Virus record (IMG/VR): IMGVR_UViG_3300018080_008375
Location: 35,822-99,821 of that record
DNA: 64,000 nucleotides
Reading direction: 5' to 3' (one strand)
DNA from: a virus
Each line of letters starts with the position of its first letter. Position 1 is the stretch's first letter. Both the position numbers and the translations under genes were made by a program. The notes under the pieces were generated by a model. The model did no database searches. It was not told the origin of the DNA and was given only the letters and a program-made list of their open reading frames with translations. Shown here piece by piece: positions 55 to 15,326 of this stretch.

Positions 55-618
55 ATGAAGTATATGCTTGCAGTGGACCTGGAGACTACCGGGCTGAATC
101 CGAGGCATCATGAGATCACGCAGATAGGCGCGATCCTGCTGGACAGGGAGTTGAAGGAACTCGGCGAGTTCGAGACGCTTGTTAAGATCGACTATCCGGA
201 GCGCGGGCTTGAGGGCGGCTTTGATGTGTTCAAATACACCGGTATTACGCAGGACAGTCTCAAAGACGCTCCGACGCTGAAGAAGTCCCTGCGCGCCATG
301 GAGGTGTTCGTTAGGTCCAAGATCGGCGGGTTTAGCCTGGAAAGCGTGGCGGTGTTCGGCCAGAACCCGCGCTTCGATGTCGGCTTCCTGGAGGAGGCGT
401 ACAGGAGCCTCGGATGGAAGTTTCCGTTCGATTTCCATGTCATCGGCCTTGAGAGTGCGTATGTGTTCTATAGCCTCAAGAAGAACGGAACGCTGCCGGT
501 CGGTCTCCGCCTGAAGGACATCTGTAAGAAGGCGGGAATCAAGAATGCGCAGGAGCACAATGCCATAGCAGACATTCGTGCTACAGTCGATTCGCTCAGG
601 GCGCTTTTGGAAAAGTAG
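55..618 (+). CDS. DEDDh 3'-5' exonuclease (DnaQ/epsilon-like)
   Basis: ExoI DLETTG, ExoII QNPRFD, ExoIII HNAIAD motifs. Confidence 0.9.
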   Translation: MKYMLAVDLETTGLNPRHHEITQIGAILLDRELKELGEFETLVKIDYPERGLEGGFDVFKYTGITQDSLKDAPTLKKSLRAMEVFVRSKIGGFSLESVAVFGQNPRFDVGFLEEAYRSLGWKFPFDFHVIGLESAYVFYSLKKNGTLPVGLRLKDICKKAGIKNAQEHNAIADIRATVDSLRALLEK

Positions 619-653
619 GGTGCTGAAATTGGGGTGATGAAAGGAGTTGTTCC

Positions 654-1079
654 ATGGAAGTTTTTTTGCTTATCGTTGTCGTAGCGATTGCTTTGCTGCT
701 GATGTTTCTGCCGCATTCCGGCAAGAAGAAGTGGGCCGAGTCGCATAGGAGGGGGTTGGAGGAACAATATGCTCCCTGGTCGGCACCACAGGAAGAAAAG
801 GAGCCGGAGGACCTACGGGCAGACTCCGATTTGGAGCCGTCAGAAGGTTTCTGTAACGGTACGCGCGTCGTCGCGCAGGCAGTGTTTCGAGTTGCCAAGA
901 CGACCCGTGGATGGGCTTTGTTCGACGGAAAGAAGACTATCCTCACGCGCAAGAAGAAGCGTGATGCCGTGGCTGAGGCAAGAAGCGTTGCCAATGCGCG
1001 TCAACCGTCACGGCTGGAGATCTACAAGGCGGACGGAGAGTGCCAGGTGTCGCACGAATACGGAAAGAGCAAGGGGTAG
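654..1079 (+). CDS. Membrane-anchored protein with C-terminal DUF2188-like domain
   Basis: N-terminal hydrophobic helix; C-terminal GW...KRDAVAEARSVA...LEIYKADG pattern; SD AAGGAG upstream. Confidence 0.55.
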   Translation: MEVFLLIVVVAIALLLMFLPHSGKKKWAESHRRGLEEQYAPWSAPQEEKEPEDLRADSDLEPSEGFCNGTRVVAQAVFRVAKTTRGWALFDGKKTILTRKKKRDAVAEARSVANARQPSRLEIYKADGECQVSHEYGKSKG

Positions 1080-1183
1080 CGCAAGTGCTGGGGCTGGCAG
1101 GTGCGCAATGCTAATGGTTTTGTGTTTTTGTGCGCGTGGTTTTGAGTTTCTCGACCACGGCTTTTATCTAGGAGGTTGTTTCA

Positions 1184-1423
1184 ATGTCACAGAGCATTAC
1201 ATGGGACGACACGGCTGTCGGATGGGTTTACAACACCGGCATGTGGGGCGATTTGCTGAACGAAATGCTCGATGACGAAGACGAGGAGAGCGGGAAACCT
1301 TCTGAAGAAGCCGAGCCTGAAAACAACGGCAACCGCGAACTGTGCTGGTGGTGCGGAAGGCGCACTGAAGTGCGCGCTTTGTTCACCGGAACATGCCGCA
1401 TTTGCTCGTCGTGTAACAAATAA
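1184..1423 (+). CDS. Small hypothetical protein with CxxC...CxxC Zn ribbon
   Basis: SD AGGAGG upstream; CWWC and CSSC. Confidence 0.6.
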   Translation: MSQSITWDDTAVGWVYNTGMWGDLLNEMLDDEDEESGKPSEEAEPENNGNRELCWWCGRRTEVRALFTGTCRICSSCNK

Positions 1424-1497
1424 GGCTCCGTGTGCTAACTGGCATAGCATCTCGATTTAAAATCGAGCGTTTGGGGGTTCGAATCCCTCCGGGGCCA
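1424..1497 (+). tRNA. tRNA-Leu(UAA) with short (class I-like) variable loop, no encoded CCA
   Basis: Acceptor GGCTCCG/CGGGGCC+A73; D stem TGCT/AGCA; anticodon stem CTCGA/TCGAG with loop TT-TAA-AA; T arm GGGGG-TTCGAAT-CCCTC. Confidence 0.85.
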
Positions 1498-1508
1498 TCG
1501 GAGGAAAG

Positions 1509-1766
1509 ATGGACGAAAACAGAATGGGAAATTACAACCGGGAGAAGAGTAGCCCGAGCGCCAAACAGTTGCTGCGGCAGCTGAGAGAGATGAAAACGCT
1601 GTTCAGGCGCGAGAGGGACACGGTGCGCAAGAACATCGCCCTGCTGACGGCGAACATGGGAGAGTTCGCCGTCGCCATTGACGCCGCCCTGGAAAAGACC
1701 AAAGGCAGCCTGGAAGAGCTGCGGGCGTACAGGAAGGCGATGGAGCGGAGGTCGGACAGGAAATGA
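1509..1766 (+). CDS. Hypothetical coiled-coil protein
   Basis: SD GGAGG upstream; heptad-like composition. Confidence 0.6.
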   Translation: MDENRMGNYNREKSSPSAKQLLRQLREMKTLFRRERDTVRKNIALLTANMGEFAVAIDAALEKTKGSLEELRAYRKAMERRSDRK

Positions 1767-1803
1767 CTTGGGACTACCAGCACTGGAACTAGGGAGATGC
1801 GAT

Positions 1804-2307
1804 ATGGAGCGGACACTGCTCTTGAGCCAATCGTACGAGCCGATTGCGACCATATCCTGGCAGAGGGCCATATGCCTGCTGATGCTGGGCAAGGTGGAGA
1901 TAGTCGAGGAGTACGACCGCAGCGTGCGCTCCGTGTCGGTGGTTTTCAAGATGCCGGCCGTCGTGCGCCTGGTGAATGCTTTCAGGCGCCACAAGAAGGG
2001 CGTCAAGTTCAGCAAGCAGAATGTTTTTGCGCGGGACAGGTGGAAATGCCAGTATTGCGGCATCAAGAAACCAGCAACTGAACTCACATATGACCATGTT
2101 GTTCCAAGGTCTCGAGGTGGCAAGACATGCTGGGAGAACATTGTCACGTCGTGCTCGGAATGTAATTCCAAGAAGGGCAACAGGACTCCGCAGCAGGCCG
2201 GAATGAGGCTGAAGAGGGTTCCGGTCAGGCCTGACTGGGTGCCCGTGTTCGCCGTGCAGGTGAGCCGCGACATGCCCGATGCGTGGCGCAACTACTGCTG
2301 GAGTTAG
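1804..2307 (+). CDS. HNH endonuclease (McrA-like)
   Basis: RDRWKCQYCG, TYDHVVPRSRGG, NIVTSCSECNSKKG; start moved to ATG 1804 (MERTLLL). Confidence 0.9.
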   Translation: MERTLLLSQSYEPIATISWQRAICLLMLGKVEIVEEYDRSVRSVSVVFKMPAVVRLVNAFRRHKKGVKFSKQNVFARDRWKCQYCGIKKPATELTYDHVVPRSRGGKTCWENIVTSCSECNSKKGNRTPQQAGMRLKRVPVRPDWVPVFAVQVSRDMPDAWRNYCWS

Positions 2308-2323
2308 TTTTTTACTAGCATTT

Positions 2324-2367
2324 TCTACCAATATTCCTGTATGTACACACATATGGAATATTGGAGG
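2324..2367 (+). promoter_or_regulatory. Putative phage promoter motif inside an RBS-sequestering hairpin
   Basis: TCTACCAATATTCCTGTAT; inverted repeat CCAATATTCC (2328-2337) / GGAATATTGG (2355-2364) overlaps SD GGAGG (2363-2367). Confidence 0.6.
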
Positions 2368-2375
2368 TTCGAATC

Positions 2376-3110
2376 GTGAAGGGTCAAACCAAGTATGAAA
2401 AGGAAATTGTAGAAAATGCTGTTCAAAACGCGCGATCTTTAAGAGAAGCCATTGAGAATCTTGGTCTAAAACCCAACAATGGCAACTACAGGTTTATTTC
2501 TGCAAAAGTAAGGCTGTACGGCATATCCATAGAGCATTTTGTAAGACACGCAACGCGTGGGTGTACGGCACACAATAGCCAAGCAATAAGGAATGTTCGA
2601 AACCAGTTGCGATGGACGGATGATGAGTTGTTCAGAAAATCGTCTGTATATGTTTCTGGTTCGAGACTGAGAAAACGTTTGTTGGAAAAGGGGTGGGAAT
2701 ACAAGTGTGCCATATGCGGGCATGATCCCATATGGAACGGGAAAAAGCTTACTTTACAAGTAGATCATATCAACGGAGATAGCATTGATAACAGGTTGGA
2801 AAATCTGAGGTTTTTGTGTCCGAACTGCCATTCCCAAACGGCAACTTTCGGGAACAACAAAAATCGTGCTACAAAGCCTGAGAAAACCTGTAACATATGT
2901 GGTCGACCTGTCCATTACAAAAACAAAAGCGGACGGTGTCGAGGCTGTAGCAACAGACTTAGTGGTTGTCAGCGGCGTGGGCAAAACACAAAAATAAAAT
3001 GGCCGCCGCACGCACGGCTTTTGAAAATGGTCGAAAAAACTTCATTTTCGGCTGTCGGAAGAAAGCTTGGTGTTTCTGATAATGCAGTTCGCAAGCATCT
3101 TAAAATATGA
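2376..3110 (+). mobile_element. Free-standing HNH homing endonuclease gene in the tRNA cluster
   Basis: CAICG...LQVDHINGDSIDNRLENLRFLCPNCHSQ; C-terminal Zn finger and HTH (VGRKLGVSDNAVRK); visibly more AT-rich than flanks; ends 2 nt before tRNA-Pro; GTG start 8 nt after SD. Confidence 0.8.
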
Positions 3111-3112
3111 GA

Positions 3113-3186
<74 letters not shown>

Positions 3187-3303
3187 CAGATAGGGTCCTG
3201 GCGCGGACCCTGGCGCAGTTTGCGTACATGGCTTTTTGCGGAGCTAGCCTGCCGGGGCGTTGTACCGGATCGTTTCATCCGCCCATGCTTTCATACGCGC
3301 CAT

Positions 3304-3384
3304 GGAGGGTGCCGCCAAGGTGGCAACGCCGGCTTGAACCCGGTGGGGGCTTGGTCGCTCGGGGTTCGATTCCTCCACCCTCCG
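3304..3384 (+). tRNA. tRNA-Ser(UGA) with 8/4 fold
   Basis: 8-bp acceptor GGAGGGTG/CACCCTCC+G73; 4-bp T stem GGGG/CCTC with TTCGATT loop; 6-bp anticodon stem with loop CT-TGA-AC; variable arm GGGC/GCTC. Confidence 0.8.
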
Positions 3385-3399
3385 CCCGAGGAGAAAGAC

Positions 3400-3576
3400 A
3401 TGAAGGAAGCCAGATGCCCCGTGTGCGGGAGAACATGGGAGCTGTCCGTCCGCTCCAAAGACGACAAGCTCCCCCAATGCGGGTGTTTTGACCTGATGTC
3501 GGGCGTATGCTGGACATGCTGTCTCCTACACAGCATGTCATGTCCCGCAGAGGCATCCGAAAGGGAAGAACAATGA
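3400..3576 (+). CDS. Small Cys-rich hypothetical protein
   Basis: SD GAGGAG; CPVC and further Cys; ATGA overlap with next gene. Confidence 0.5.
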   Translation: MKEARCPVCGRTWELSVRSKDDKLPQCGCFDLMSGVCWTCCLLHSMSCPAEASEREEQ

Positions 3577-4118
3577 GTTCCGTAGTTCGCCTGGTTCTTG
3601 ACGGACCGGCAAAGCCGGACAGCGGTGTTGATATTCTTCTGGAGGCTTTCAGGCGCTGGCCGAGGGACCTGGAATCCGACTACATGCTAGTCTACATGAT
3701 CACTCCCGGCGGCTTTATGGAGTTTCCCCTGCCAGACTCGTGGAGCGGTTGCTGCGGCTGCCACGACCTGAACATCTTCAGTCCGAGAGCGAAGGCGAAC
3801 AGGAAGCCTGGGTCGCCCAGAAGCAGGCGGGCGATAGAGATGAAGTCCAAGGTGTCATGGAAGGAGCCGGACGTTGTGCTGCACCACCCCCACGCCACGG
3901 ACACGCCCATGGCATGGCAGCTCGGATGGTCGGGGCTGGTGAAAGAATTCGAGCCCGTTGTGTGCGCTTCTGCCATAGGATACTACTCGTACGAGCATTC
4001 GACTCCCAGGTGCACGCTCAAGAGCGTGCTCGACGGAACGCATCCGGGGACCGAGGTGTGCGACATCGTGATCGACACGTCTCCATACCGGTCCAGACCC
4101 GGAATGTACATGAGATAG
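3573..4118 (+). CDS. Hypothetical protein, possible C-N hydrolase-like fragment
   Basis: TPGGF and GCHDLNIFSPR motifs; coupled start. Confidence 0.45.
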   Translation: MSSVVRLVLDGPAKPDSGVDILLEAFRRWPRDLESDYMLVYMITPGGFMEFPLPDSWSGCCGCHDLNIFSPRAKANRKPGSPRSRRAIEMKSKVSWKEPDVVLHHPHATDTPMAWQLGWSGLVKEFEPVVCASAIGYYSYEHSTPRCTLKSVLDGTHPGTEVCDIVIDTSPYRSRPGMYMR

Positions 4119-4128
4119 CGGAGCCCAG

Positions 4129-4788
4129 ATGAGAGATCCGGAGAGAATACCAGTAATATTGAGCAGGATCGAGGAGATCTGGAAGAAGAATCCGGACATG
4201 CGCCTCGGACAGCTGCTTTCAAACCCGTTTGTAGATCTAACGCCGCTGTTCTATTCGGAGGACGATGCCTTGGTGGGACGGCTTGAGGACCTGTATGTCC
4301 GCGGAAAGCAGCTGGAGAAAAGCCACAGGTGGTGGATGGAAAGGATTCGCACTCCGAAGATAGGGGCGGCCGGCATTGTCGAAAGCAACCGCGGAAACCT
4401 GCTTGTGATAGAGCGCGGAAATCCCCCGCTCGGTTTCGCATTTCCAGGAGGATTCGTGGATATGGGCGAGACGGTTGCCGAGGCAGCCAGGCGCGAGGTT
4501 TTGGAGGAAACCGGCATCAGGACACTTCCTGCCTGCGCCGGCCTGTTGCGCTTGTCATCAAGGCCTTCCGACCATCCCGCGGATCATTTTGTTACTGTGT
4601 TCATGGTGATGTATGCTTTGGGCGAAAGCGATCCGCAAGCTGGAGACGATGCCTTGGACGCATGGTGGATGAGCCCTGACAACTGCATGTCGTCGATAGG
4701 GGAGTTTGCGCCTGTGTACGGAGATGCTCTGAGGATGTATATGGGCTGGACTAAAAGCGGTCGTCCGAGGCTTCCAGAGGCGGCATAG
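4129..4788 (+). CDS. NUDIX hydrolase with extra N-terminal helical domain
   Basis: Nudix box GGFVDMGETVAEAARREVLEETG; N-terminal MRDPERI...WKKNPDMRLGQLL. Confidence 0.85.
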   Translation: MRDPERIPVILSRIEEIWKKNPDMRLGQLLSNPFVDLTPLFYSEDDALVGRLEDLYVRGKQLEKSHRWWMERIRTPKIGAAGIVESNRGNLLVIERGNPPLGFAFPGGFVDMGETVAEAARREVLEETGIRTLPACAGLLRLSSRPSDHPADHFVTVFMVMYALGESDPQAGDDALDAWWMSPDNCMSSIGEFAPVYGDALRMYMGWTKSGRPRLPEAA

Positions 4789-4796
4789 GAGGATAC

Positions 4797-5255
4797 ATGG
4801 GAAACAAGCCGTGGTACGGAGACTGGCACCTGCTGTACGAGCTTAGCAACAGCGGGGGACCGTATCCCTCCCCGCCCGCGCCGGGCGCCAAGGCGGTCCC
4901 GTTCGGATTCGAGGTTCCGAAGCATCCGTGGCCCGAGTGGCTGGACGGCAACTACAAGGTCCTGTCCAACCCGGCGTACAGGTCGTCGTACGACAGCAGC
5001 TCAGCGAGCGGCTCGATCGGAATATACAGCTTCGAGATCCGGGTGGTCCTCAAGGACGGCGTGAGCGAGGAAGCGGCCGTCGAGCGCCTGTACGCGTCGG
5101 GATGCGACGACGCACTGTTTGCCGTGTGCGACGGGGGCGTCAGGCTCGATTTCGACAGGGAAGCCGATTCTTTAAGCGAGGCGCTGGATTCGGCCTGCGC
5201 CGATATCATGAAATCCGGCGTTGCGCTGATGTGCGGCAGCAAAAAGATACGATAG
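4797..5255 (+). CDS. Hypothetical protein
   Basis: SD AGGAGG; C-terminal LYASGCDDA...LDFDREADSL domain. Confidence 0.55.
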   Translation: MGNKPWYGDWHLLYELSNSGGPYPSPPAPGAKAVPFGFEVPKHPWPEWLDGNYKVLSNPAYRSSYDSSSASGSIGIYSFEIRVVLKDGVSEEAAVERLYASGCDDALFAVCDGGVRLDFDREADSLSEALDSACADIMKSGVALMCGSKKIR

Positions 5256-5266
5256 GAGGTTTCAAA

Positions 5267-5990
5267 ATGACAAACACAAGGAGGTCTCTTTGACAAGGCT
5301 CTTGTCGAGATAAGGGCCGCAGAAGGTGGAGACGACGCGAAGCTGCTTGTCTCGGACCTGTTCCAAGTCTACATGAAGTGGTGCCGCCGCCGCGGCTTCG
5401 AGGCTGACATGTCGTTCAGCGCCGAGGCTGGAGGCGGTTTTTCTTTGGTTGAATTCGTGGTGTCCGGAGACGGCGCGCGCGATGCGTTCATGAACGAAGC
5501 CGGAGGCCACAGGTTCCAGAGGGTGCCGCCAACAGAAAAGCGAGGAAGGAGACAGACATCCACGGTGACGGTGGCAGTCCTGCCGATAGCGTCCGAGACA
5601 GAAATGAGAATAGACCAGTCAGAGTTGTCATGGGAGGTGAAGCGCGGGAATGGAGCCGGAGGCCAGCATCGCAATGTTACCGAAAGCGCCGTTAGGGTGA
5701 CGCATGTTTCTACAGGCATTTCAGCCACATGCCAAGACGAGCGGTCCCAGCACCGCAACAAGAAGAGGGCGCTTGAGATACTGCGCGCCAGGCTTTTTGA
5801 CAAGGTGGAATCGGAATCCGCAGCTGAGGAAAATGCCAGGAGAAAGAAGCAGGTTGGGTCAGGAATGCGCGGGGACAAGATCAGGACCTACCGCTACCAG
5901 GACGGAAGGGCGGTGGATCACAGGACTGGCAGGAAGGTGAGGCTGGAAGATGTTTTGTCTGGAAACCTGGATGTTTTTCGAAAGGGCTAG
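5267..5990 (+). CDS. Class I peptide chain release factor (RF1-type PxT, no domain 1), expressed via +1 programmed frameshift; about 240 aa
   Basis: SD AGGAGGT + ATG 5267, 8 codons to CTT TGA C; +1 frame continues DKALVEIRAAEGGDDA...HRFQRVPPTEKRGRRQTS...GAGGQHRN...GMRGDKIRTY. Confidence 0.88.
5279..5294 (+). promoter_or_regulatory. prfB-type +1 ribosomal frameshift cassette
   Basis: AGG AGG TCT CTT TGA C versus E. coli prfB AGG GGG TAT CTT TGA C: internal SD, 3-nt spacer, slippery CTT-T, weak UGAC stop. Confidence 0.85.
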
Positions 5991-7150
5991 TTGTCCACTT
6001 TTTTGCCGGATCTCCACTGATAGCATGACCAGTACTTCGCCTTTGTCTTGTCTTTGGCGGATTCGCTGTCGCATTTGTGCCGAGAACGGAAATTTCTCCT
6101 GCGTTCCGGGTCGTCGCGCCTGATTTCCATTTCCGGGTCGCCAAACTGTATTTTGCGCACCTTCTTGGTTTTCGGGTCCTTTACAAAGACATGAAACTTT
6201 TTCTTGTTTCCTGGCGGGTTGCGAACCGGGTCGTTCAGCTTGATCTTTTTTCCTTGGTATTCGGCAGCCGACACATGTAGGCTGCTCTTTTTGGGTTTGG
6301 AGAATTCCTGGATCTTCCTGAACGATGCCTCGAATTCTTTTTCCATATCGATGATGGCTTGTTTTTTGTCGGTAATTTCTTGTTCAAGTTCTTCCCATCT
6401 GGGAGAGAGCCTGGAGCGTATCTCCTGGATCTCTTTGGCGCGCGGGTTTTTTCTCTCTATGCGCAGCATGCGCGCGTATTCGGGACGCATTTTTTCCCTT
6501 TCGATGTTGAGCGTTTTCAGCTCCTGCCTGGCTCTTGGAATCATCTCCTCGCTAAGCTGGCGGGCGGCGTCTATTTCGCGCTCGAGCCTTGACCCCTTGG
6601 CCATTTTGGCGATGTCGGATATTTTCCAGGCGGCGTAGTGAAGCTCGTTGTCGAATGCGTGGAACGGCTTGAGGCCTTTTGACATGACATAGTTTATGAA
6701 CGACTCCTTGTCCGTGAAGCCTAGGAGGCGCGTGGCGGCATAGGTGGTCGTGTATATCTTTTCTCCATTTCGGGTGTTGCGCTGGACAAAATCGCGCAGG
6801 CGCCCTGACACAGAGCGCGGAAGCTCTGAGAGGGGCATCTTGTACAGCTCCTCTTCCACGAGTTTGACCTCGTGAGGGGACAGCGGTTCGCCTCGGTTCA
6901 TTTTCTCTTTTAATTCCGCAGCTCTCCTGGCACATTTTGGACATTGCGACATATTGGGCGGAATTTCTTTTCCGCATATGCGGCATGATGGTCTTTTTTC
7001 AGGTTTTTTTTCTTTGCGTTTTGTTTTGTGTGCGGACATCGGTCTGTCCGGGCAGTTTGGGCAGGTTGAAAGGTTTGCGGAAAACTTTCCGCCGCATTTC
7101 GGGCAGATGCGCCATCTGCCGGCTCGTTTGAACATGGGGCGTGTTGTCAT
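5987..7150 (-). CDS. Hypothetical protein with N-terminal Zn ribbons and a conserved-looking viral C-terminal domain
   Basis: Only convincing minus-strand gene; SD AGGAG; AEYQGKKIKL...KKFHVFVKDP...FGDP...FRSRHKC...KYWSC resembles a domain I recall from large-phage proteins. Confidence 0.7.
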   Translation of the reverse strand: MTTRPMFKRAGRWRICPKCGGKFSANLSTCPNCPDRPMSAHKTKRKEKKPEKRPSCRICGKEIPPNMSQCPKCARRAAELKEKMNRGEPLSPHEVKLVEEELYKMPLSELPRSVSGRLRDFVQRNTRNGEKIYTTTYAATRLLGFTDKESFINYVMSKGLKPFHAFDNELHYAAWKISDIAKMAKGSRLEREIDAARQLSEEMIPRARQELKTLNIEREKMRPEYARMLRIERKNPRAKEIQEIRSRLSPRWEELEQEITDKKQAIIDMEKEFEASFRKIQEFSKPKKSSLHVSAAEYQGKKIKLNDPVRNPPGNKKKFHVFVKDPKTKKVRKIQFGDPEMEIRRDDPERRRNFRSRHKCDSESAKDKTKAKYWSCYQWRSGKKVDN

Positions 7151-7181
7151 GTCGCACTCCTACTGATGGTCAGTTATATCT

Positions 7182-7200
7182 ATTCGTGATTATTGATAGA
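7182..7200 (-). promoter_or_regulatory. Putative phage promoter motif
   Basis: Minus-strand TCTATCAATAATCACGAAT about 30 nt upstream of the 7150 start; matches the copies at 2324, 36653 and 58987. Confidence 0.55.
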
Positions 7201-7224
7201 ATTTTGCCTAACAAGGATGGGACA

Positions 7225-7992
7225 ATGCTGTTCAAAGAGTTTGATGCGCGGATGCGCGTATACGAGACGGCGCACGACCAATGTGTTCTTCCTGGGGTAT
7301 ACATGGTTGCACGCCTTGATGGAAGGTGTTTTACGCGCCTTACAAAGGTACAAAGGTTTGAGAGGCCGTTTGACGTCGATTTTCGCGACCATATGGTCGC
7401 CGTTGCGTGCCACTTGATGCGCTGTGGATTCAACGCAACATACGCTTACATACAGAGCGACGAAATTTCGCTGCTATTTGATTTGGCAGAAAACACTTTC
7501 GGTCGCAAGCTGCGCAAGTTAAATTCCGTGCTGGCAGGGGAGGCAAGCGCTAAGTTCACAAAATGCCTCGGCGGAGGGGACATGGGAGTGTTCGATTGCC
7601 GCATTTCCCAGCTGCCGCGCACAGGCGATGTGGTTGATTACTTTCGCTGGAGGCAGGAGGACGCTTATCGCAATGCGCTACATGGTCACTGCTATTGGAT
7701 GCTTCGCGGCGATGGCAGGAGTGCTTCCGAAGCTACGAGCTTGTTAAGCGGCAGTTCGTCCTCCGACAAGCAAGAGCTGCTGTTTTCCAATGGGACGAAC
7801 TTCAACGGCATTCCATTGTGGCATAAGCGCGGAACTGGGATATATTGGGAAACATACAAGAAGAAAGCTGCCAATCCAGTTACCGGCGACAAAGTGGATG
7901 TCGAGCGCAGGCGCATTAGAGTTGATTTTGAGTTGCCGATACATGATGAATATGCGTTGTTCGTGCGCCGTCTGATCGGCGTTTTGACATGA
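7225..7992 (+). CDS. tRNA(His) guanylyltransferase Thg1-like protein
   Basis: RMRVYE, ARLDGRCF, YIQSDEISLL, FDCR, YFRWRQEDAYRN, KRG motifs. Confidence 0.92.
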   Translation: MLFKEFDARMRVYETAHDQCVLPGVYMVARLDGRCFTRLTKVQRFERPFDVDFRDHMVAVACHLMRCGFNATYAYIQSDEISLLFDLAENTFGRKLRKLNSVLAGEASAKFTKCLGGGDMGVFDCRISQLPRTGDVVDYFRWRQEDAYRNALHGHCYWMLRGDGRSASEATSLLSGSSSSDKQELLFSNGTNFNGIPLWHKRGTGIYWETYKKKAANPVTGDKVDVERRRIRVDFELPIHDEYALFVRRLIGVLT

Positions 7993-8010
7993 AGGAGGGT
8001 TAGGGGATTG

Positions 8011-8544
8011 ATGGAAGTTCACTGGATAGCCGCTATTTCCGCCATCTTGCCCATGGCGTTTCTGCAGAGCGTCATACACCAGCTGTCGCACGGACTGGCA
8101 ATGCGGATTGGATGGAAGTGGGGGTTTAAAATACATCCGCTCCCATCCAAGGGGGCGTCTGGCGTTGTATGGCCGCATGTGACATACAGGATGTGTAGTA
8201 AATCGTGCGATCTGGACATGTTCGGAAAGGCTATCGCATCTATTGCGCCAAAAATAGCGAATGTCGTCTTGGTCATGGCATCTGGCATTGCCATAACTCA
8301 GTTGCTTAATCCAACGCTTCTGACCCTTCTGCTCATGTTCGCCTTGGCGAACACAGTCGACTTCATGTCTGCGTTGTCAATATTTCGCAAAAGCGGCACT
8401 TCGGACATATGGAGGTTTTCCAACTACACCGGAATCGAAACCAGTCATGTAAGATGGTTCGTGGCTGCAATTTCATTTTTGCTGCTGCTGCTAGTTGTCG
8501 TGTCTTTTTTCGGTCGGGTGCTTCCACAGACGGGAATATTATGA
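8011..8544 (+). CDS. Integral membrane protein
   Basis: Several hydrophobic segments; HQLSH (degenerate HExxH). Confidence 0.55.
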   Translation: MEVHWIAAISAILPMAFLQSVIHQLSHGLAMRIGWKWGFKIHPLPSKGASGVVWPHVTYRMCSKSCDLDMFGKAIASIAPKIANVVLVMASGIAITQLLNPTLLTLLLMFALANTVDFMSALSIFRKSGTSDIWRFSNYTGIETSHVRWFVAAISFLLLLLVVVSFFGRVLPQTGIL

Positions 8545-9650
8545 ATCGCATCATTAGGTCGAGAGTGCGCGGCGCCATTGTCGGAACGGCGATAGGCGAT
8601 GCGCTCGGGATGCCCGCGGAGGGCATGACGCCACAAGCCATAGCCCAGATGTACGGTCGCCTTCGTTCTTTTGCGAATCCTAAAGGGGGGACCTGGGCGC
8701 ATACACATCATCAGCTTGGGCGAGGGCAGTGGACGGACGACACGCAGCTTATGCTCGCCATTGGCGAATCGCTTTTGGCAAAGAAGCATGTCGATTTCCG
8801 GGACATCGCGGACAGGCATATATCCGCGATGGCGGAAAAGCGCGGATGGGGCGGATCGACGGTCACCGGCGTTTCCAAGATACGCGCCGGAGTGAATTGG
8901 TGGAACTCCGCCAAGCCGGAAGGCGCAGGCAACGGAACGCCCATGAAGATTGCGGCTGTCGGAGCGGTTGCCGGATTAGGTTTCCTCAAGCCGTTTGACA
9001 TGGCGTCGACGGTGATCAACATTTCTCGCATGACGCACGGCGACCCGCGGTCTGCGATAGCCGGCATCATCCAGGCTGAAGCCATCGCCATTGCAATCAA
9101 GGGAGGACCAGCGGCCCTCCGCTTGTATCTTGCCCAAGCCGATCAGAGAGCCGAAAGCTGGGAGCGCTGCGTCGGCTCGCAGGCTCCGCTTCTCAGCGCC
9201 AATATGTCTGCCGGTCAGAGTATCATCATGCGCGGCGGCGATCTTGAAAACCTTAGGTCCGCGCTGCGAGCCGGATGCTTCGTGGTGCAGTCGTTCCCAT
9301 TCACAATTTCGGCCGTTCTCCTGATGTTCGACCTGCCGCCCGACGAATGCCTGTCCAGGATCGTCGAGCAGGGGGGCGATACCGACACTACCGGCGCCAT
9401 GGCTGGCGCGGTGCTTGGGGCGGCGCATGGCATGGCGTCGTTCCCGGCGCGGCTCAGGCGCGGACTTGAGGGCTATAAAAGGCTTATTGCTCTTGCTGAC
9501 GGACTGTGCGCGATGACGGACATGTCGGAGCGTCCATGCGTAAGCGGGAAGTCGTTTTCCAGACCAAAGATTTCCTTTTCGCGCGGCAACGAAAAGCCAA
9601 AGACCTGCCAGCCTTTGGCTGACCTGGCGTTGTCAGCGGAGGGGATGTGA
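8541..9650 (+). CDS. ADP-ribosylglycohydrolase (DraG/ARH family)
   Basis: GTAIGDALG, GQWTDDTQ, GNG, THGDP, GGDTDTTGAMAGA. Confidence 0.92.
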   Translation: MNRIIRSRVRGAIVGTAIGDALGMPAEGMTPQAIAQMYGRLRSFANPKGGTWAHTHHQLGRGQWTDDTQLMLAIGESLLAKKHVDFRDIADRHISAMAEKRGWGGSTVTGVSKIRAGVNWWNSAKPEGAGNGTPMKIAAVGAVAGLGFLKPFDMASTVINISRMTHGDPRSAIAGIIQAEAIAIAIKGGPAALRLYLAQADQRAESWERCVGSQAPLLSANMSAGQSIIMRGGDLENLRSALRAGCFVVQSFPFTISAVLLMFDLPPDECLSRIVEQGGDTDTTGAMAGAVLGAAHGMASFPARLRRGLEGYKRLIALADGLCAMTDMSERPCVSGKSFSRPKISFSRGNEKPKTCQPLADLALSAEGM

Positions 9651-10453
9651 TGTACCATTACGATCTTCAGCTCAAGCGCGGCGGCAATCTCGTATGTATG
9701 GAATGGTCGCGCGAAAATGAAAGGTACGAAGAGCGCATCCTGGATAGCGAGGAGATTCCGTTTCACCTCACGAGCACATTGTGCACCGAGCGTGGGGCGA
9801 CATTGCGCGACATCCTGCGCGTGACCGGAAGGCACCCTGAAATTTTTGCCGCAGTGACCGACTGTCCGGCGTTACAGATGTTCGTGGACGAGGCTTTCGA
9901 GGACAGGGGCGAGGACGAGTGCTGCTGCGGCAGCCTGATGGCGCTGGAGCTGGGATGGGTTGCGTTGGCGGACGCTGAGAACGGGGAGATCGTGCTTTAC
10001 GAGCATATGAATTTTCAAGGAAGGGCGCACGACGGAGACGCCATAGGTTTGGAATTTTCGCATGTCGGCGACCTGGCCGATGTGCCGATAGAGATAGACG
10101 ACACCATGATGGTTCGGGAGGGCAGCAATGCCGAAAACATACTGTTTTCGGCAAGAAGGCCAATGACGCTCGAAGAGGTTGCCAGAGGCATCGTGGGCGA
10201 GCTGGCGTTTTTCGGAACGCCGGAAAACAGGGCGAAAGAGGCGGAAGGCTTGAAAAGAGCGGTTGAGGAGGTTGACTCGGGCTCCGCCAAGCTATATAGT
10301 TTGGAAGAGGTAATGAGCAGGATTGAGGCAAGGGCTGATGGGGAAAAGCGTAAGTTTCCGTGCCGCAAGTGCGGGAAAGATTCGCGCTGCGCTTGCTTCG
10401 GCAAGCCTGCCGACATTTGCCACGAATGCTTTACAAAAATGGAGGAAGACTGA
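9647..10453 (+). CDS. Hypothetical protein
   Basis: Translationally coupled ORF; C-terminal Cys cluster. Confidence 0.6.
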   Translation: MMYHYDLQLKRGGNLVCMEWSRENERYEERILDSEEIPFHLTSTLCTERGATLRDILRVTGRHPEIFAAVTDCPALQMFVDEAFEDRGEDECCCGSLMALELGWVALADAENGEIVLYEHMNFQGRAHDGDAIGLEFSHVGDLADVPIEIDDTMMVREGSNAENILFSARRPMTLEEVARGIVGELAFFGTPENRAKEAEGLKRAVEEVDSGSAKLYSLEEVMSRIEARADGEKRKFPCRKCGKDSRCACFGKPADICHECFTKMEED

Positions 10454-10935
10454 TGAGCAACAAGGAAAAGACAGAAGGGTTGGGAATCAAAGAAACTTTC
10501 GATGTACTGCTGGTGGACGCCATCAAAGCGAACGACACGAAGACAAAAAATTTTATTAGGCAGATGCGCGCCAAGGTGTCCGAGCACTGCCTGGCAAACA
10601 ACCTTCCGCGAGACTCGGCTGACCAGGATATCTGGCTCAAGGTCATGAGCGTTTACAAAAAGTCTATCGCAAAGGCGTTGGAACTGATGGAACGCCGCGG
10701 GGCGGGAGACAGCGAACTGGCTGAAGAGTACAAGTTCGAGGTGGATTTCTGTAACAAGTACCTGCCCAGGCCGCTCGGCTATGACGAAGTGCTTGGGCTT
10801 GTCAAGCAGGCTGTGTCAGATATCGGTCCAAACGCAAAGGTTGGTCAGGTTGTGGGCGTTGTGGTGAATGGTTCCGTACCTGGCACCGTAGATGCTGTTC
10901 TGGCAAAAAGGGCGGCAACGGAAATTCTAGGCTGA
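10453..10935 (+). CDS. GatB/YqeY-like domain protein
   Basis: E...YLPRPL..DEV..LV...GQVVG pattern of YqeY. Confidence 0.7.
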   Translation: MSNKEKTEGLGIKETFDVLLVDAIKANDTKTKNFIRQMRAKVSEHCLANNLPRDSADQDIWLKVMSVYKKSIAKALELMERRGAGDSELAEEYKFEVDFCNKYLPRPLGYDEVLGLVKQAVSDIGPNAKVGQVVGVVVNGSVPGTVDAVLAKRAATEILG

Positions 10936-11405
10936 TGGGCGACGAGCTTACTCGTAAAGAAGCGAAGAGGGTAAGGGCTTTCCGCAAGGAGCTTGAGCAC
11001 TGGAAAGAGATCCTTATGATGGATCCTCTTTGGGACATACGCTTATCGGTCGTCAGCGACGACAGTAAAGCGTTCAGCAAGTCGGCCGTCGAGCGAAGTG
11101 GCAAAAAATTCATTAAGAGATCGTTCTGCGATTTATCCAAGACGGAATACTATTCCGGCGACATAGGGCTAGCCAGAAGTGCGCTGTCCGTTCCGGAATC
11201 CGAAGCCGAGCATATGAGGCGTGACACGATGTCGCACGAGATGATCCACTTCCTGACCGCAGACTATCATCGGGCAGCCCTGGCGGCCGCTGGAGGCGAC
11301 CAGAGGGTGATAAACGAGCTGGCATACAGGTACGAACAGCTGGTTGTGCGCATTGCCGCGATAGTCTGTGCCTTGGATGCCGAAATACGCGACGAGGGCA
11401 AGTAA
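10935..11405 (+). CDS. Hypothetical zincin-like protein
   Basis: HEMIH motif. Confidence 0.5.
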   Translation: MGDELTRKEAKRVRAFRKELEHWKEILMMDPLWDIRLSVVSDDSKAFSKSAVERSGKKFIKRSFCDLSKTEYYSGDIGLARSALSVPESEAEHMRRDTMSHEMIHFLTADYHRAALAAAGGDQRVINELAYRYEQLVVRIAAIVCALDAEIRDEGK

Positions 11406-12079
11406 TGGACGACCATCCGATATATAGTTTGCGCCAGGCGTGCTATGACTGTCGCGACTGTCCGCTGGGAAACCGTCTTGTGAATGGCTTGGATCCGCAT
11501 GTGTTCGCGGGCGGAAACATACATGCCAGCATAATGTTCGTGGGCGAGGCTCCGGGAGCGGAGGAGGTCAGGCAGAAAAGACCTTTGGTGGGGCGGTCCG
11601 GATGGTTTTATGAGAACCACATACTTGCCGGAGCAGGTTTGTTCAGACGCAGTGTATATACCACCAATGCTGTGTTATGTCGACCCGACGAGAAAAACCG
11701 CACGCCGAATTCGTCGGAAATAGACGCATGCCGCAGGCATTTGGACGCCCAGGTGCTATTTGTGAGACCCAAGCTGATTGTGACTCTCGGTAACGCGCCG
11801 CTGTACGCCCTGTGCGGAATAGGCGGCATAACCAAGTATCGCGGAAAGCTCCGCAACTCGAACCCATGGTCTGACGGAAGCATTACCAAGGTGTTTCCGA
11901 TGTTCCATCCGGCATACTGCCTGAGGGGGAGCGGTCTGAAGGAGACCAAGGAGGACTACGAGGCGCTGGGCAGGATGGCGCTGGAGTTCGAGCAAAGCAT
12001 AGCCGGCAAAGAGGACGTCAGGTGCGTGCAGGAGTTGTACCGGGTCGCAGAGGAAGGCAAAGGCAATGGGAGAGCATGA
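11405..12079 (+). CDS. Uracil-DNA glycosylase, family 4
   Basis: CRDCPL, FVGEAPG, TNAVLCRP, HPAY. Confidence 0.92.
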   Translation: MDDHPIYSLRQACYDCRDCPLGNRLVNGLDPHVFAGGNIHASIMFVGEAPGAEEVRQKRPLVGRSGWFYENHILAGAGLFRRSVYTTNAVLCRPDEKNRTPNSSEIDACRRHLDAQVLFVRPKLIVTLGNAPLYALCGIGGITKYRGKLRNSNPWSDGSITKVFPMFHPAYCLRGSGLKETKEDYEALGRMALEFEQSIAGKEDVRCVQELYRVAEEGKGNGRA

Positions 12080-12482
12080 TCAAAAAAGCGGAAAATTTGT
12101 TGTAAAGGTTTCTGGTGACAAACAAAAGTTTGCTACAGGGGCGCAGCGCGACCGGCAAGAAGGCAAGGGAAGGTATGACTTGGTGAGCATATTTGCTTTG
12201 AGAGAAATTGCGCATGTTTATGAAGCCGGAAGCCTTGCGTATGGCGAGCGCAATTGGGAAAAGGGCATGAATCTCAGCAGATTTTTGGACAGCGCACTTC
12301 GTCACACTTTTCAGGTGATAGAGGGCAAGCGGGATGAAAATCATGCTGCGCAAGCCGCCTGGAATCTCATGGCTTTTATTCATACGCGCGAAATGATAAG
12401 CCGCGGCATTCTTCCAAAGAGCTTGGACGACCTTCCGGACTATATGCCAAAATCTGTAGACGAGGATGAAGGGTGCGGATGA
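12066..12482 (+). CDS. DUF5664 / dATP-dGTP diphosphohydrolase-like protein
   Basis: GAQRD..EGKGRYDL, YGERNWEKGM, HAAQAAWN. Confidence 0.8.
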   Translation: MGEHDQKSGKFVVKVSGDKQKFATGAQRDRQEGKGRYDLVSIFALREIAHVYEAGSLAYGERNWEKGMNLSRFLDSALRHTFQVIEGKRDENHAAQAAWNLMAFIHTREMISRGILPKSLDDLPDYMPKSVDEDEGCG

Positions 12483-12691
12483 TGTATGTTTTCTTTATAC
12501 TTGTGGTGGCCTATGTATACGCATGTGCTCTTGCTACAATGTGGTTTTATGACAAGCGGTGGTGGGGAAAAAGTAAAAGGGGTAGAGCCAGGCTTAGGCT
12601 TTGTGTCCATTTGTTTTCGCCATCTCTTCCATGATTTTTCTATTTTGCTGGCTCAAAAGGAATATTTCCGACGCTTTCGGTAAAGAATGAC

Positions 12692-13081
12692 ATGGGATAT
12701 GTTCAGTACATCATAGTCCGCAAGGACCTGGTTACGGAGATGGGAATTGGAAAGACGGCCGCCCAGGTAGCCCATGCGTCGTTGGGCGCGATCCTGGACA
12801 AGGGGAAGCTGGTTGACGACCCCGCAGTGCGCGGGTGGCTGACCGGAGCTTTCACCAAACTGGTGGTGTACGCCAAGACCAGGCAGAAGCTCTTGAATCT
12901 TATAGGGAAATGCCGTGAAGCAGAACTCCGTGTTAAGCCGATTTACGATGCGTGCCGCACCAAGTTGGAACCGGAGGAGCCTGACGGCACCACGCTGACT
13001 TGCGTGGGGCTGTCTCCAGTGCGCGCCGATGAGGTGCCAAAGTTTCTCAAAAAGCTCAGGTTACTGGATGGTGAAAAATGA
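12692..13081 (+). CDS. Peptidyl-tRNA hydrolase, Pth2 type
   Basis: IIVRKDL, GKTAAQVAHA, KLVV, DACRT, TCVGLSP, LRLL. Confidence 0.9.
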   Translation: MGYVQYIIVRKDLVTEMGIGKTAAQVAHASLGAILDKGKLVDDPAVRGWLTGAFTKLVVYAKTRQKLLNLIGKCREAELRVKPIYDACRTKLEPEEPDGTTLTCVGLSPVRADEVPKFLKKLRLLDGEK

Positions 13082-13743
13082 ATGACAGCGAAAGACCAAG
13101 GTGGGACGACACATTTTTGAACATTGCGAGGGAGATTGCCAGGAGGTCCAAGGACCCGTCCACCAAAGTTGGATGCGTCATTGTCGGTCCGGACAATGAG
13201 GTCCGCTCAGTCGGGTACAACTGTTTTCCCAGAGGCATTCGCGACAGTGAGTCAAGGCTTAACGACAGAAGGGAAAAGCTCCTCTTTGTTGAGCATTCCG
13301 AAAGAAACGCCGTGTACAATGCTGCTAGGGCGGGCATTTCTCTAAAGGGCTGTAGGATATACCTTCCTTGGCTTCCGTGTTCCGACTGTGCCAGGGCTAT
13401 AATACAGTCCGGAATAGTAGAGGTTGTTACTGACAATCCCAATGTGCCAGCCAGGTGGCGCAGGGATTTTGCCGTATCGCTGACGATGTTACATGAGGCT
13501 GGCGTGCTGATCAGACGGCCCGGAGGCCGGCCTGTAAATATCTGCGCAGTTATGGGGCGAGCATGGGTAGGCAAAACTATAAAAACGCGCGATGGAGAAA
13601 AGCGTACGATCAAGTATGTTTATTTTAACGCTAGTGGCGAGATTATTGTGTCGTTCAAAGAAGTTGCCCTGCTTGAAACAGCCAGGTCTTTCGCCGACGT
13701 CGAGCGGCGCATTGTCGAACCGGAGGCGGCTATTGTCCCTTGA
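13078..13743 (+). CDS. dCMP deaminase
   Basis: RSKDPSTKVG, HSERNA, PCSDC. Confidence 0.9.
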   Translation: MNDSERPRWDDTFLNIAREIARRSKDPSTKVGCVIVGPDNEVRSVGYNCFPRGIRDSESRLNDRREKLLFVEHSERNAVYNAARAGISLKGCRIYLPWLPCSDCARAIIQSGIVEVVTDNPNVPARWRRDFAVSLTMLHEAGVLIRRPGGRPVNICAVMGRAWVGKTIKTRDGEKRTIKYVYFNASGEIIVSFKEVALLETARSFADVERRIVEPEAAIVP

Positions 13744-13759
13744 AAAGGGTGTGAGATGA

Positions 13760-14110
13760 ATGCGCGTTGTTTTGTGTCTCGGATGCTGGGGAGCTGTTCA
13801 TGGCGACGGATTCGTCATGTGCCCCGGCGTTTCCAATGAAATATTGGATATAACTGGCGGAACAAAGAGGAATGCGGATATAGTTGACCATCTGGACTCG
13901 CATTACGGTTTGTTCGACAAGCCGCTGCTCAACAATGTGCACACTGCTCTGTTCGGGCTGAAGGAGAAGTTCAGCACGGCGTCCAGCCCGCTGTTCGGAG
14001 AAAAAGAGTTCCGAAGGCTGGAGCGGTTCTGCGTGGCGCATGCAAAATGCGGCCTGTTCCTGCGGCTTGAGATGAAAGGAAACGGGGATGAAGAAGGTCC
14101 TGGTGGTTGA
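13760..14110 (+). CDS. Hypothetical protein
   Basis: Fits the gene packing. Confidence 0.5.
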   Translation: MRVVLCLGCWGAVHGDGFVMCPGVSNEILDITGGTKRNADIVDHLDSHYGLFDKPLLNNVHTALFGLKEKFSTASSPLFGEKEFRRLERFCVAHAKCGLFLRLEMKGNGDEEGPGG

Positions 14111-14582
14111 TATTGACGGAACCATGGTTGACAACGATCACAAGGTCAGGGAGTTGTCGGACAGGTTCGGAAAAGGTCCGAACCATTGGGATGAGAAAAT
14201 GTGCGACGAGTTCTTCTCCGAGTGGTTCTATCCGTTTGCCGGCGCTTTGCTTCTGCCACAGACGGCGAAGCGGATGGGGGCGGAGTTTGTCTTTCTGACA
14301 GGAAGGTCCGAATGCTACAGGGGGCAGACGGAGCAGATGCTCGACAACGATTTTAAACTCGACTGCGACCGGACCCCCCTGTTCATGAGGTCCGACGGAG
14401 ACCGGCGGCCGAGCCATGTCGCCAAGACGGAGCTTGCCGAGCGGACCGTGGTGCCGATATACAGGGACAGCGTGCTCGTGTTCCTGGACGACGACGAAGC
14501 GTGCCTTGGGGAGTACAACAAATACGGGGTCGCCCTGAAGGCACCAAGATGCTGGGACGCCTTGGCATTCTGGACGGACTGA
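14088..14582 (+). CDS. HAD-family phosphatase (PNKP 3'-phosphatase-like)
   Basis: DIDGT, LTGRSE, LFMR..GDRR, FLDDD. Confidence 0.8.
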   Translation: MKKVLVVDIDGTMVDNDHKVRELSDRFGKGPNHWDEKMCDEFFSEWFYPFAGALLLPQTAKRMGAEFVFLTGRSECYRGQTEQMLDNDFKLDCDRTPLFMRSDGDRRPSHVAKTELAERTVVPIYRDSVLVFLDDDEACLGEYNKYGVALKAPRCWDALAFWTD

Positions 14583-14592
14583 GAGGGAGCAG

Positions 14593-14946
14593 ATGCAGTC
14601 AAAGCTGACAGACAGAAACATAGATGTCAAAAACATCACAAAAGCCGTTGTAAAGGAGCTGGGACTGCTTGCCGCCCAGCAGGACGGCAGCCTTACGCTG
14701 ATCAACAAGCTGCAAGCCATGTCCTCGGATGGTCTTGAGCATCTGGACAGCCGCGAAGCTGTCATGCAGCTGACGCATGCTGTCGGCAACCTGTCGTTTG
14801 ACACCCTTGGCAACAGGGTTAGCGAGCGAATGATCGCTCCGGTGGCCATATGGCTGCTAAGGCTGTGCTCGGCCAACAGCATCAGGTTCGAGAATGTCCT
14901 GAAGGTTACGAGGGATTGCCTGGGGAGCAAAAAAGTGTCGACCTGA
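14593..14946 (+). CDS. Hypothetical protein
   Basis: SD GGAG; gene packing. Confidence 0.5.
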   Translation: MQSKLTDRNIDVKNITKAVVKELGLLAAQQDGSLTLINKLQAMSSDGLEHLDSREAVMQLTHAVGNLSFDTLGNRVSERMIAPVAIWLLRLCSANSIRFENVLKVTRDCLGSKKVST

Positions 14947-15050
14947 GCGTCCCGGCACAATGGTAATGGGTACGGCCTCCTGGAGCCGGACCAGGGAATA
15001 ACCCGGATTTGTGGTTGACGCGTAGCTGTCCGGGAGGCCCATCCAAAAAC

Positions 15051-15284
15051 ATGAACAAACACGCCGACTTCCTGATTGCCTTGGCGGACGCCCTCGACGA
15101 GGAGGGCGAATTCGAAAAGGCCGACATAATCGACAAGGATTTCGAGGAGTTTTTGAAGCTTCTCGAAAGCGGCGAGCTTGTGTTCGACGAGCAGTTCTCC
15201 GGAGGCGCAAGGGACCCGAGGGGTCCCTATAGTTCCTGGGGGCGTACCGACACGCCAGTCTTCGGAATATCCGGACCGCAGTAG
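15051..15284 (+). CDS. Small hypothetical protein with LxxLADxLDxxG motif
   Basis: Motif shared with ORF 62103-62768. Confidence 0.55.
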   Translation: MNKHADFLIALADALDEEGEFEKADIIDKDFEEFLKLLESGELVFDEQFSGGARDPRGPYSSWGRTDTPVFGISGPQ

Positions 15285-15326
15285 AAAGACCATCCCGCCT
15301 TCATGGCGGTCCGTGAAAGACAACCA

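Follow-up and report, generated by a model that had tools for sequence, protein, structure and literature searches.

An RF1-type release factor gene of a phage lies behind a putative prfB-type +1 frameshift cassette

Background

Programmed +1 frameshifting at a Shine-Dalgarno (SD)-like element followed by a spacer of three nucleotides (nt), CUU and UGA-C is a textbook case of translational autoregulation, so far tied to a single gene, prfB, which encodes release factor (RF) 2. In Escherichia coli, the prfB cassette reads AGG GGG UAU CUU UGA C. In this work, we describe a cassette of this type in a 64,000-nt stretch of DNA from a huge phage (positions 35822-99821 of IMG/VR record IMGVR_UViG_3300018080_008375, that is, the right-hand 64 kb of the 99,821-base record), where it stands before a gene for an RF1-type class-I release factor. 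The whole stretch is called the window below, and positions refer to it unless stated otherwise.

A survey published in 2025 and covering over 12,000 genomes finds TGA in 98.6% of prfB motifs and TAG in 0 of 8,164; for prfA, the gene of RF1, programmed frameshifting is not shown, and 34 prfA pseudogenes contain no conserved elements (PMC12421855). According to a 2016 review of recoding, a counterpart with UAG and RF1 genes was unknown (PMC5009743). The original prediction, which was made from the letters of the window, knew of no such arrangement for RF1 genes, and both papers say the same. As for phages, a paper on huge phages lists RF1, RF2, transfer-messenger RNA (tmRNA) as well as SmpB among their genes (PMC7162821), and a preprint on recoding describes RF1 in TGA-recoded Jade phages and RF2 in TAG-recoded ones (bioRxiv 10.1101/2021.08.26.457843); neither mentions a frameshift. 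No further report of a frameshift-gated phage release factor was found in the literature searched, where an older description in subscription journals is possible.

Frame structure of the locus

The elements of the cassette and the two frames that it separates are listed in Table 1. The full product consists of the 8 leader residues and the 232 residues of the +1 frame, 240 amino acids (aa) in total. The +1 frame is shut upstream by the TGA at 5268-5270, and its first ATG, GTG or TTG is the ATG at 5373 (codon 28). A start at this ATG would lose 27 residues, including E6, R8, E11, G12, G13, D15 and K17, which form seven columns that are invariant across the family described below and span 5307-5342. 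Because the conserved segment EIRAAEGGDDA lies 5' of the ATG, it would have to be translated via the shift. Alternative starts behind the internal SD-like element were also sought, and none was found at a workable distance in the +1 frame.

The site carries every prfB-type sequence element tested, namely the SD-like purine element, the 3-nt spacer, CTT-T, TGA-C and an unreachable open reading frame (ORF) in the +1 frame. In both strands of the window, the pattern RGGRGG-N3-CTTTRR has 1 match where 0.13 is expected (at least one match was obtained in 11 of 100 shuffles), and this single match is located at the exact place where the +1 shift is required. The original prediction had read the same cassette and had held that the full protein needs a prfB-style +1 frameshift; its SD, ATG, internal AGGAGG, CTT and TGA-C agree with the sequence letter for letter, and the need for the shift stands, given a +1 frame that is closed upstream and offers no earlier start.

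A stimulatory RNA structure was also considered. Rfam gave no match, and the fold of 5240-5360 has a z value of -2.2. A perfect 6-bp inverted repeat, GACAAG-GCT-CTTGTC, occupies 5292-5306, its first base being the second of the gate stop codon. As a stimulatory hairpin it was set aside, since it would be inside the ribosome at the time of the shift and is absent from two relatives with the same kind of gate (L001 and L081, see below); it is probably due to chance.

Table 1. Positions of the gated factor gene and of surrounding genes in the window.
Feature	Position	Strand	Remarks
Shine-Dalgarno sequence AGGAGGT of leader ORF	5254-5260	+	read from the sequence; overlaps the TAG stop (5253-5255) of upstream ORF 4797-5255
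Leader mini-ORF, 0 frame	5267-5293	+	ATG ACA AAC ACA AGG AGG TCT CTT TGA; MTNTRRSL and stop
Internal SD-like AGGAGG	5279-5284	+	putative frameshift stimulator; spacer TCT at 5285-5287 (3 nt) before the shift codon
Shift site CTT TGA C	5288-5294	+	predicted CUU in P site, UGA in A site, C at +4
CTT of shift site	5288-5290	+	
TGA-C of shift site	5291-5294	+	first codon after a +1 slip would be GAC at 5292
Main ORF, +1 frame	5292-5990	+	232 codons and TAG; RF1-type release factor, domains 2-4
Conserved EIRAAEGGDDA	5307-5339	+	start of RF1 helix alpha5; 5' of the first in-frame ATG (5373)
PPT tripeptide (CCG CCA ACA)	5526-5534	+	RF1-type PxT 'anticodon' motif; inside RFQRVPPTEKRGRRQTST; residues 79-81 of P0001
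GGQ catalytic motif (GGA GGC CAG)	5658-5666	+	residues 123-125 of P0001
Own stop codon TAG	5988-5990	+	within palindrome CTAG 5987-5990
RNase T-like	55-618		
NUDIX	4129-4788		
Thg1-like	7141-7992		
ADP-ribosylglycohydrolase	8409-9650		
YqeY	10360-10935		
Pth2	12692-13081		
S41 peptidase	16081-17211		

Encoded protein

The product contains the C-terminal half of the Pfam domain PCRF (profile positions 101-194) and the RF-1 domain. Among the NCBIfam models, those of RF1 score highest (268.6 and 264.2 bits), followed by RF2 (189.9), PrfH (98.4) and ArfB (31.8), all of these scores being below the cut-offs of the models. In particular, the RF1 models (NF001859/TIGR00019) are matched over positions 106-333 of 347, at 268.6 bits against a cut-off of 400 and 264.2 against 423.25; PrfH (TIGR03072) falls short of its cut-off of 166.65 bits, and ArfB (NF006718), with a cut-off of 100 bits, is matched in residues 102-136 only. 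Solved RF1 chains score about 200 bits, with alignments running from RF1 residue 107 on, against about 141 bits for RF2 chains. The AlphaFold2 model has a mean pLDDT (predicted local distance difference test) of 82.5 and template modelling (TM) scores of 0.82-0.86 to the compact crystal forms of RF1 and RF2.

N-terminal domain 1 is absent: the alignment starts at RF1 residue 107, and ahead of the aligned segment the product has only the 8 leader residues. The upstream ORF 4797-5255 matches no Pfam family and is not a separate domain 1. By its sequence, the product is thus best described as an RF1-type class-I release factor with domains 2, 3 and 4, GGQ and PPT, and without domain 1. The original prediction had called it an RF1-type product lacking domain 1, in agreement with the RF1 score of 268.6 bits against 189.9 for RF2 and with a match that begins at model position 106.

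Decoding residues were compared with those of eight bacterial RF1 controls. The alpha5 motif is EIRAGTGGDE in bacterial RF1 and EIRAAEGGDD(A/S)K in the phage family, and the recognition loop is RVQRVPxTExQGRIHTS in bacterial RF1 and R(W/F/V/I)QR(V/I)PPTE(K/R)(K/R)GR(V/R)(Q/H)TST in the phage family. The tripeptide retains its Pro and Thr, and the family also retains the Gln and Thr at the positions that we take, from work on Thermus thermophilus RF1, to read the third base of the stop codon. From the PPT and this Gln/Thr pair, the product should act on UAA and UAG. The closed loop of prfB, in which the product reads its own gate codon, is then not expected at this locus, where the product is RF1-type by score and motifs and the gate is UGA.

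Relatives and their gates

A search of 5.8 billion proteins places the product in a family of short RF1-like proteins of 221-252 aa. A scan of IMG/VR with the single protein gave no match; a scan with the family alignment gave 322 matches, the best 80 of which lie for the most part on phage contigs that reach 467 kb. Scans of metagenomes and bacterial genomes returned almost only ordinary full-length RF1 with at most 49% identity, which served as controls; in particular, the best 80 loci of the family scan in 185,579 bacterial and archaeal genomes are bacterial RF1 (at most 49% identity). A pattern scan for the 5' leader cassette matched a single contig in IMG/VR, that of L081, and gave no match in the same 185,579 genomes.

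Frame analysis sorts 82 phage loci into four classes: a plain ATG just before (I/V)EIR and no gate (47 loci), a frame change inside the gene (30 loci; 22 TGA and 8 TAG), a gate in a 5' leader (4 loci: the window, L001, L081 and L128), and full-length RF1 (L095). The two types of gate together provide 30 distinct cassettes. CTT is present in all 30, and GGAGG stands exactly 3 nt before it in 22; if GGGGG is counted along with GGAGG, the number rises to 24, and the spacer is 3 nt in 24 of the 30. The gate stop of the family is TGA or TAG, mostly followed by C.

Two other leader gates of the window's clade, read from DNA, differ in their letters from that of the window. L081 (65% identity to the window) has ATG ACT AGG GGG TGT CTT TGA C, a UGA gate behind the leader M(NM)TRGCL, and L001 (60% identity) has ATG AAT AAG TTT GGG AGG TAT CTT TAG T, a UAG gate behind the leader MNKFGRYL. 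The leaders of the window, L001 and L081 are 6-8 codons long and have nothing in common beyond the letters that the cassette imposes. An assembly error in the window is judged wrong because the same leader is kept in L081 and L001 with different letters.

More generally, it is very improbable that no frameshift is involved and that the locus instead reflects an assembly or sequencing error, a decaying pseudogene, a non-standard start, or re-initiation at ATG 5373, which would yield 205 aa. Truncated proteins, such as P0002 (181 aa) and P0012 (204 aa), are indeed annotated in the clade of the window, as an explanation of this kind would have it. However, the cassette recurs with other nucleotides in independent contigs from other samples, 5292-5372 is open and encodes the invariant residues of the family, and no ATG, GTG or TTG precedes 5373 in the +1 frame. 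Of the candidate non-standard starts, none is conserved across the window, L001 and L081, and a run of three T is, by general knowledge, too short for transcriptional slippage.

Ten annotated homologues (P0004, P0007, P0009, P0010, P0014, P0017, P0027, P0033, P0035 and P0056) have N-termini of the form GG.F[DS] or ..VF[DS] directly before (A)LVEIR; P0027 is identical to the product of L001 and hence is no extra case. Reading the +1 frame through GGNGG-NNN-CTT-TGA gives FD, and through CTT-TAG gives FS. Judged from the N-termini themselves, the GG.F[DS] form thus appears to be the footprint of a cassette read in the +1 frame. The original prediction had asked whether homologues keep the cassette at their 5' end; the leaders of L081, L001 and L128 and these ten N-termini answer this in the affirmative.

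About twenty other entries of the clade begin at an internal Met or at the V/L of LVEIR, and the calls made for the window itself (P0002) and for L081 (P0015) likewise start inside the gene. Such calls are what a gene caller would give for a frame without a start codon. Note that public annotation of the 5' end is unreliable in this family: in the clade of the window, P0002, P0012, P0015, P0018 and P0022-P0032 are cut short or have false N-termini. The family thus reveals a systematic annotation error, in which gene callers shorten its genes or add false N-termini.

In the fourth leader case, L128 (2900-3672 of a 256-kb viral contig), two gates stand in tandem and two successive +1 shifts are required. 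Behind an SD, ATG 2900 opens 15 codons that lead to the first gate (AGG GGG CGG CTT TGA C at 2936-2948; gate 2942-2948), and 12 codons in the +1 frame lead to the second (AGG GGG TGT CTT TGA A at 2973-2985; gate 2979-2985), after which 229 codons of the factor follow in the next frame. Judged from its sequence, such stacking makes little sense unless the device works.

In the 30 loci with a frame change inside the gene, all among L086-L160, residues 1-36 belong to one frame and all later residues to the +1 frame. CGG AGG NNN and then CTT TGA (22 loci) or CTT TAG (8 loci), usually with C after it, form the junction, which falls near codon 37 within the conserved codons RR.L. This position is homologous to the residues RRGF|E of the window (the bar marking the junction), where the codons are CGC CGC GGC TTC and no stop is present.

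Phylogeny of the gates

A quick IQ-TREE analysis (LG+G4) was made of 105 rows, with bacterial RF1 as the root. Support is given as values of the Shimodaira-Hasegawa-like approximate likelihood ratio test (SH-aLRT). The short phage factors group together (98 SH-aLRT), and three clades can be distinguished among them. The clade of the window (23 rows; 99 SH-aLRT) contains all the 5' leader gates except that of L128, mixed with direct starts and with no internal gate; another clade of 34 rows (88 SH-aLRT) contains all the internal gates; the third has direct starts only. L128 stands apart in the tree, with a direct-start sister.

Since the 5' and the internal gates lie in separate clades, with L128 apart from both, the cassette arose at least twice, having been put together at two, probably three, separate places. 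The start-less leader architecture is a placement independent of the internal gates, with a tandem double gate in the relative L128. As the device is found at two unrelated positions and once in tandem, it can be regarded as a transferable module that evolution has reinvented. Over the tree, the presence of a gate changes at least 13 times.

Proposed mechanism

With a probability of roughly 0.6, we read these sequences as a programmed +1 frameshift that gates a phage-encoded RF1-type class-I factor without domain 1 and acts as a general sensor of termination load, which either weak stop could serve. Ribosomes would initiate at ATG 5267, read eight codons and stall where the P site contains CUU and the A site the weak stop UGA-C. 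The AGGAGG 3 bases upstream would pair with the tail of 16S rRNA, and the peptidyl-tRNA-Leu would re-pair from CUU to UUU; GAC would then enter the A site, and the +1 frame would be read to the 240-aa factor MTNTRRSL-DKALVEIR... Because termination and slipping would compete at the same codon, the yield should be inverse to the speed of termination at the gate codon, and would rise when UGA is read slowly, with host RF2 scarce or busy. In the window, the gate most likely ties output to slow UGA termination, that is, to host RF2 activity. The cassette, the frames, the family and the conservation are observed directly, whereas the occurrence of the shift, its response to RF2 and the codons read by the factor are inferred.

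The circuit of the window would be cross-regulatory: a low capacity for UGA termination would lead to more RF1-type factor, which would take over UAA and UAG (about 45% of crude ORF ends) and thereby free RF2 for UGA. In the UAG-gated sister genes (L001 and eight internal cases), the loop would close on RF1-type activity and be truly self-regulating. The thing sensed was also considered to be an RF2 of the phage itself. Five other gated phage contigs carry one class-I RF each and no RF2; therefore, a UGA gate there cannot sense phage RF2, and the candidate was rejected for these five phages. In the 99.8-kb record as well, the factor gene is the only class-I RF gene.

The original prediction included the possibility that the phage RF is made only when host RF2 activity falls. 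This is overstated, since published work on prfB indicates that frameshifting at such sites is already substantial when RF2 is at its normal level. For the same reason, the gate is more likely to be a dial than an on/off switch.

Several observations weigh against sensing of termination load. First, the gate is dispensable, because close relatives start plainly at ATG (P0005, P0008, P0013 and L082). Second, across 39 gated genes the gate has exchanged UGA and UAG at least 9 times without a change in the decoding loop, and UGA-gated and UAG-gated phages are alike in the stop usage of their flanks (TGA 50% vs 46%, TAG 24% vs 29%); the choice of gate codon may not track a particular host factor. 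Together with the UAG gates of the sister genes, these changes fit neither a strict mirror image of prfB nor simple sensing of host RF2. No link of the gate codon to loop residues (H/Q, PPT/PPN) or to flank stop usage was found, with too few independent contrasts. Third, a factor blind to UGA would give no direct relief of an RF2 shortage, so that the benefit of the cross-circuit is a matter of argument. Finally, conserved residues are replaced: the His of GRIHTS, which all eight bacterial RF1 controls and L095, the full-length phage copy, possess, is replaced by Gln in the window (GRRQTS) and in most gated members, and in alpha5 Glu is changed to Asp and Thr to Glu relative to the bacterial RF1 compared. 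The specificity of the factor may thus differ from that of textbook RF1.

Such replacements would suit a factor of broadened specificity that recognises UGA in addition to UAA and UAG; any gate stop would then report the factor's own activity, as in prfB. We consider this unlikely. It would account for the interchange of UGA and UAG gates between close relatives (L090 vs L121/L123), with at least 9 changes on the tree, and is consistent with the changes from GRIHTS to GRRQTS and from GTGGDE to AEGGDD and the PPN of some members, at what we take to be codon-contact positions. TAG is absent from the 8,164 prfB motifs (PMC12421855), and the phages examined have no RF2 of their own, yet TGA is their commonest ORF end; both points are in its favour. 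Against it, the P..T of the tripeptide and the third-base Gln and Thr are kept, where the tripeptide rule, as we understand it, allows UAA and UAG only. Moreover, no loop residue covaries with the gate codon, and reading UGA while rejecting UGG would be hard for an RF1 scaffold.

Some members of the family have PPN in place of PPT. Among the internal-gate members there are nine of these (L088, L094, L097, L102, L104, L105, L131, L143 and L160), with 7 UGA and 2 UAG gates. In the tripeptide, which reads the second base of the stop codon, Asn could act as donor and as acceptor of a hydrogen bond; this is a candidate lead on altered specificity.

The cassette may also be seen as a fixed attenuator that sets a low and constant yield of a factor harmful in excess, the stop used and any sensing being incidental. 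The at least 13 changes in gate presence, a gate codon tied to no measured trait and an 8-codon leader that contributes nothing to the protein all point that way, and overproduction of RF1 or RF2 lowers the fitness of Bacillus subtilis (PMC12421855). However, a weak SD or a weak start codon would be a cheaper attenuator, whereas here a complete prfB-type signal is assembled at two or three separate places and doubled in L128; besides, the mechanism would tie yield to the rate of termination whether or not this is selected for. We regard a fixed attenuator as quite improbable, though less so than the absence of any frameshift.

Sensing of termination load by the gate, which we prefer, may be extended to a bolder form: a portable termination-stress sensor of about 30 nt in huge phages, of independent origins and stackable in tandem, driving a factor that is possibly omnipotent or UGA-reading despite its PxT-type loop. 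We hold this bolder form to be doubtful. If true, the factor would be a naturally occurring class-I factor of the bacterial type with activity on all three stop codons, and tandem stacking would provide a steeper response.

Carrier genome

The 99.8-kb record contains 31 tRNA genes and a tmRNA. The tmRNA (tag ANEQFAMAA) is located at positions 34615-34961 of the record, some 0.9 kb ahead of the window. Genes for a phage-type DNA polymerase, topoisomerase II and SbcCD are present in the window itself. Genes for the care of RNA and translation flank the factor gene within 55-17211 (Table 1). The factor gene is met by a convergent minus-strand ORF (5987-7150; 387 aa; match to phrog_7595) with repeats that resemble zinc ribbons; the palindrome CTAG contains the TAG stops of both, which overlap by 2 bases. 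ARAGORN reports an 87-nt tRNA-Arg(ACG) at 19955-20041, with its anticodon at position 33, which is unusual in length and layout.

Under the standard code, 121 crude ORFs are obtained, 88 of them on the plus strand, with 67 TGA, 33 TAG and 21 TAA ends (crude calls). Reading TGA or TAG as sense merely adds antisense ORFs, and none of the 31 tRNAs of the record is a suppressor tRNA. Stop-codon reassignment was rejected as an account of the locus: the homology runs on in the +1 frame and not in the 0 frame, the standard code yields a coherent and strand-biased gene set, and a suppressor tRNA is lacking.

TAG ends 27% of the crude ORFs (33/121), and 24-29% in the flanks of gated relatives; in bacteria it is usually the rarest stop. 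Insofar as crude ORF calls can be relied on, this high share would fit phages that bring their own UAG-reading factor.

Comparison with known systems

The SD-N3-CUU-UGA-C device is found here on an RF1-type phage factor, with UGA or UAG as the gate, at two unrelated positions and once in tandem. The question that can be tested is what a virus gains by tying its own termination factor to the termination capacity of its host. The cassettes also offer natural UGA and UAG sensors for reporters, and the factor without domain 1, whose decoding residues are altered, may have an unusual stop-codon specificity.

The closest system is bacterial prfB. It has in common with the window the SD-like element, the 3-nt spacer, CUU, UGA with C at +4 and a post-shift GAC, and in both cases the gated gene is a class-I release factor; the cassette of L081, AGG GGG TGT CTT TGA C, is one base off that of E. 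coli. In contrast, prfB gates RF2, whereas the window gates an RF1-type factor, so that under textbook specificity the UGA loop is not closed. The gate of prfB lies at about codon 26, inside domain 1, and that of the window is codon 9 of a leader outside the mature fold. Furthermore, relatives of the window use UAG, which does not occur in the 8,164 prfB motifs; the carrier here is a phage, the gate occupies two or three positions, and one gene has it doubled.

The genes of huge phages with internal gates belong to the same protein family and have in common with the window the cassette, the alternation of UGA and UAG and phage carriers of up to 467 kb. They differ in that the cassette lies in the conserved RR.L at about codon 37, whereas in the window it lies in an added 8-codon leader, and the two are in separate clades.

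Bacterial RF1 (prfA) shares domains 2-4, GGQ and a PxT-type tripeptide with the window protein, at 42-49% identity. The window protein differs in lacking domain 1, in scoring below the cut-off, in the change of His to Gln and in having AEGGDD for GTGGDE, and prfA, unlike the window gene, is reported to be without programmed frameshifting (PMC12421855; PMC5009743).

The RF1 and RF2 genes of huge and recoded phages (PMC7162821; bioRxiv 10.1101/2021.08.26.457843) are, like the window gene, borne by phages among tRNA, tmRNA and translation genes. In these two accounts there is no mention of a frameshift or of loss of domain 1, and the phage of the window, for its part, has no sign of stop reassignment.

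The rescue factors PrfH (RF-H) and ArfB are, like the window protein, relatives of class-I release factors without domain 1, and the place of the window gene among genes related to the ribosome and tRNA (Pth2, Thg1-like and YqeY, with the tmRNA nearby) is a further likeness. PrfH is not known to have a PxT or SPF motif, nor ArfB domains 2 and 4; unlike both, the window protein keeps a full loop for reading stop codons. Relative to the literature searched, the cassette and the start-less ORF behind its 8-codon leader are real and constitute an undescribed variant of a known device.

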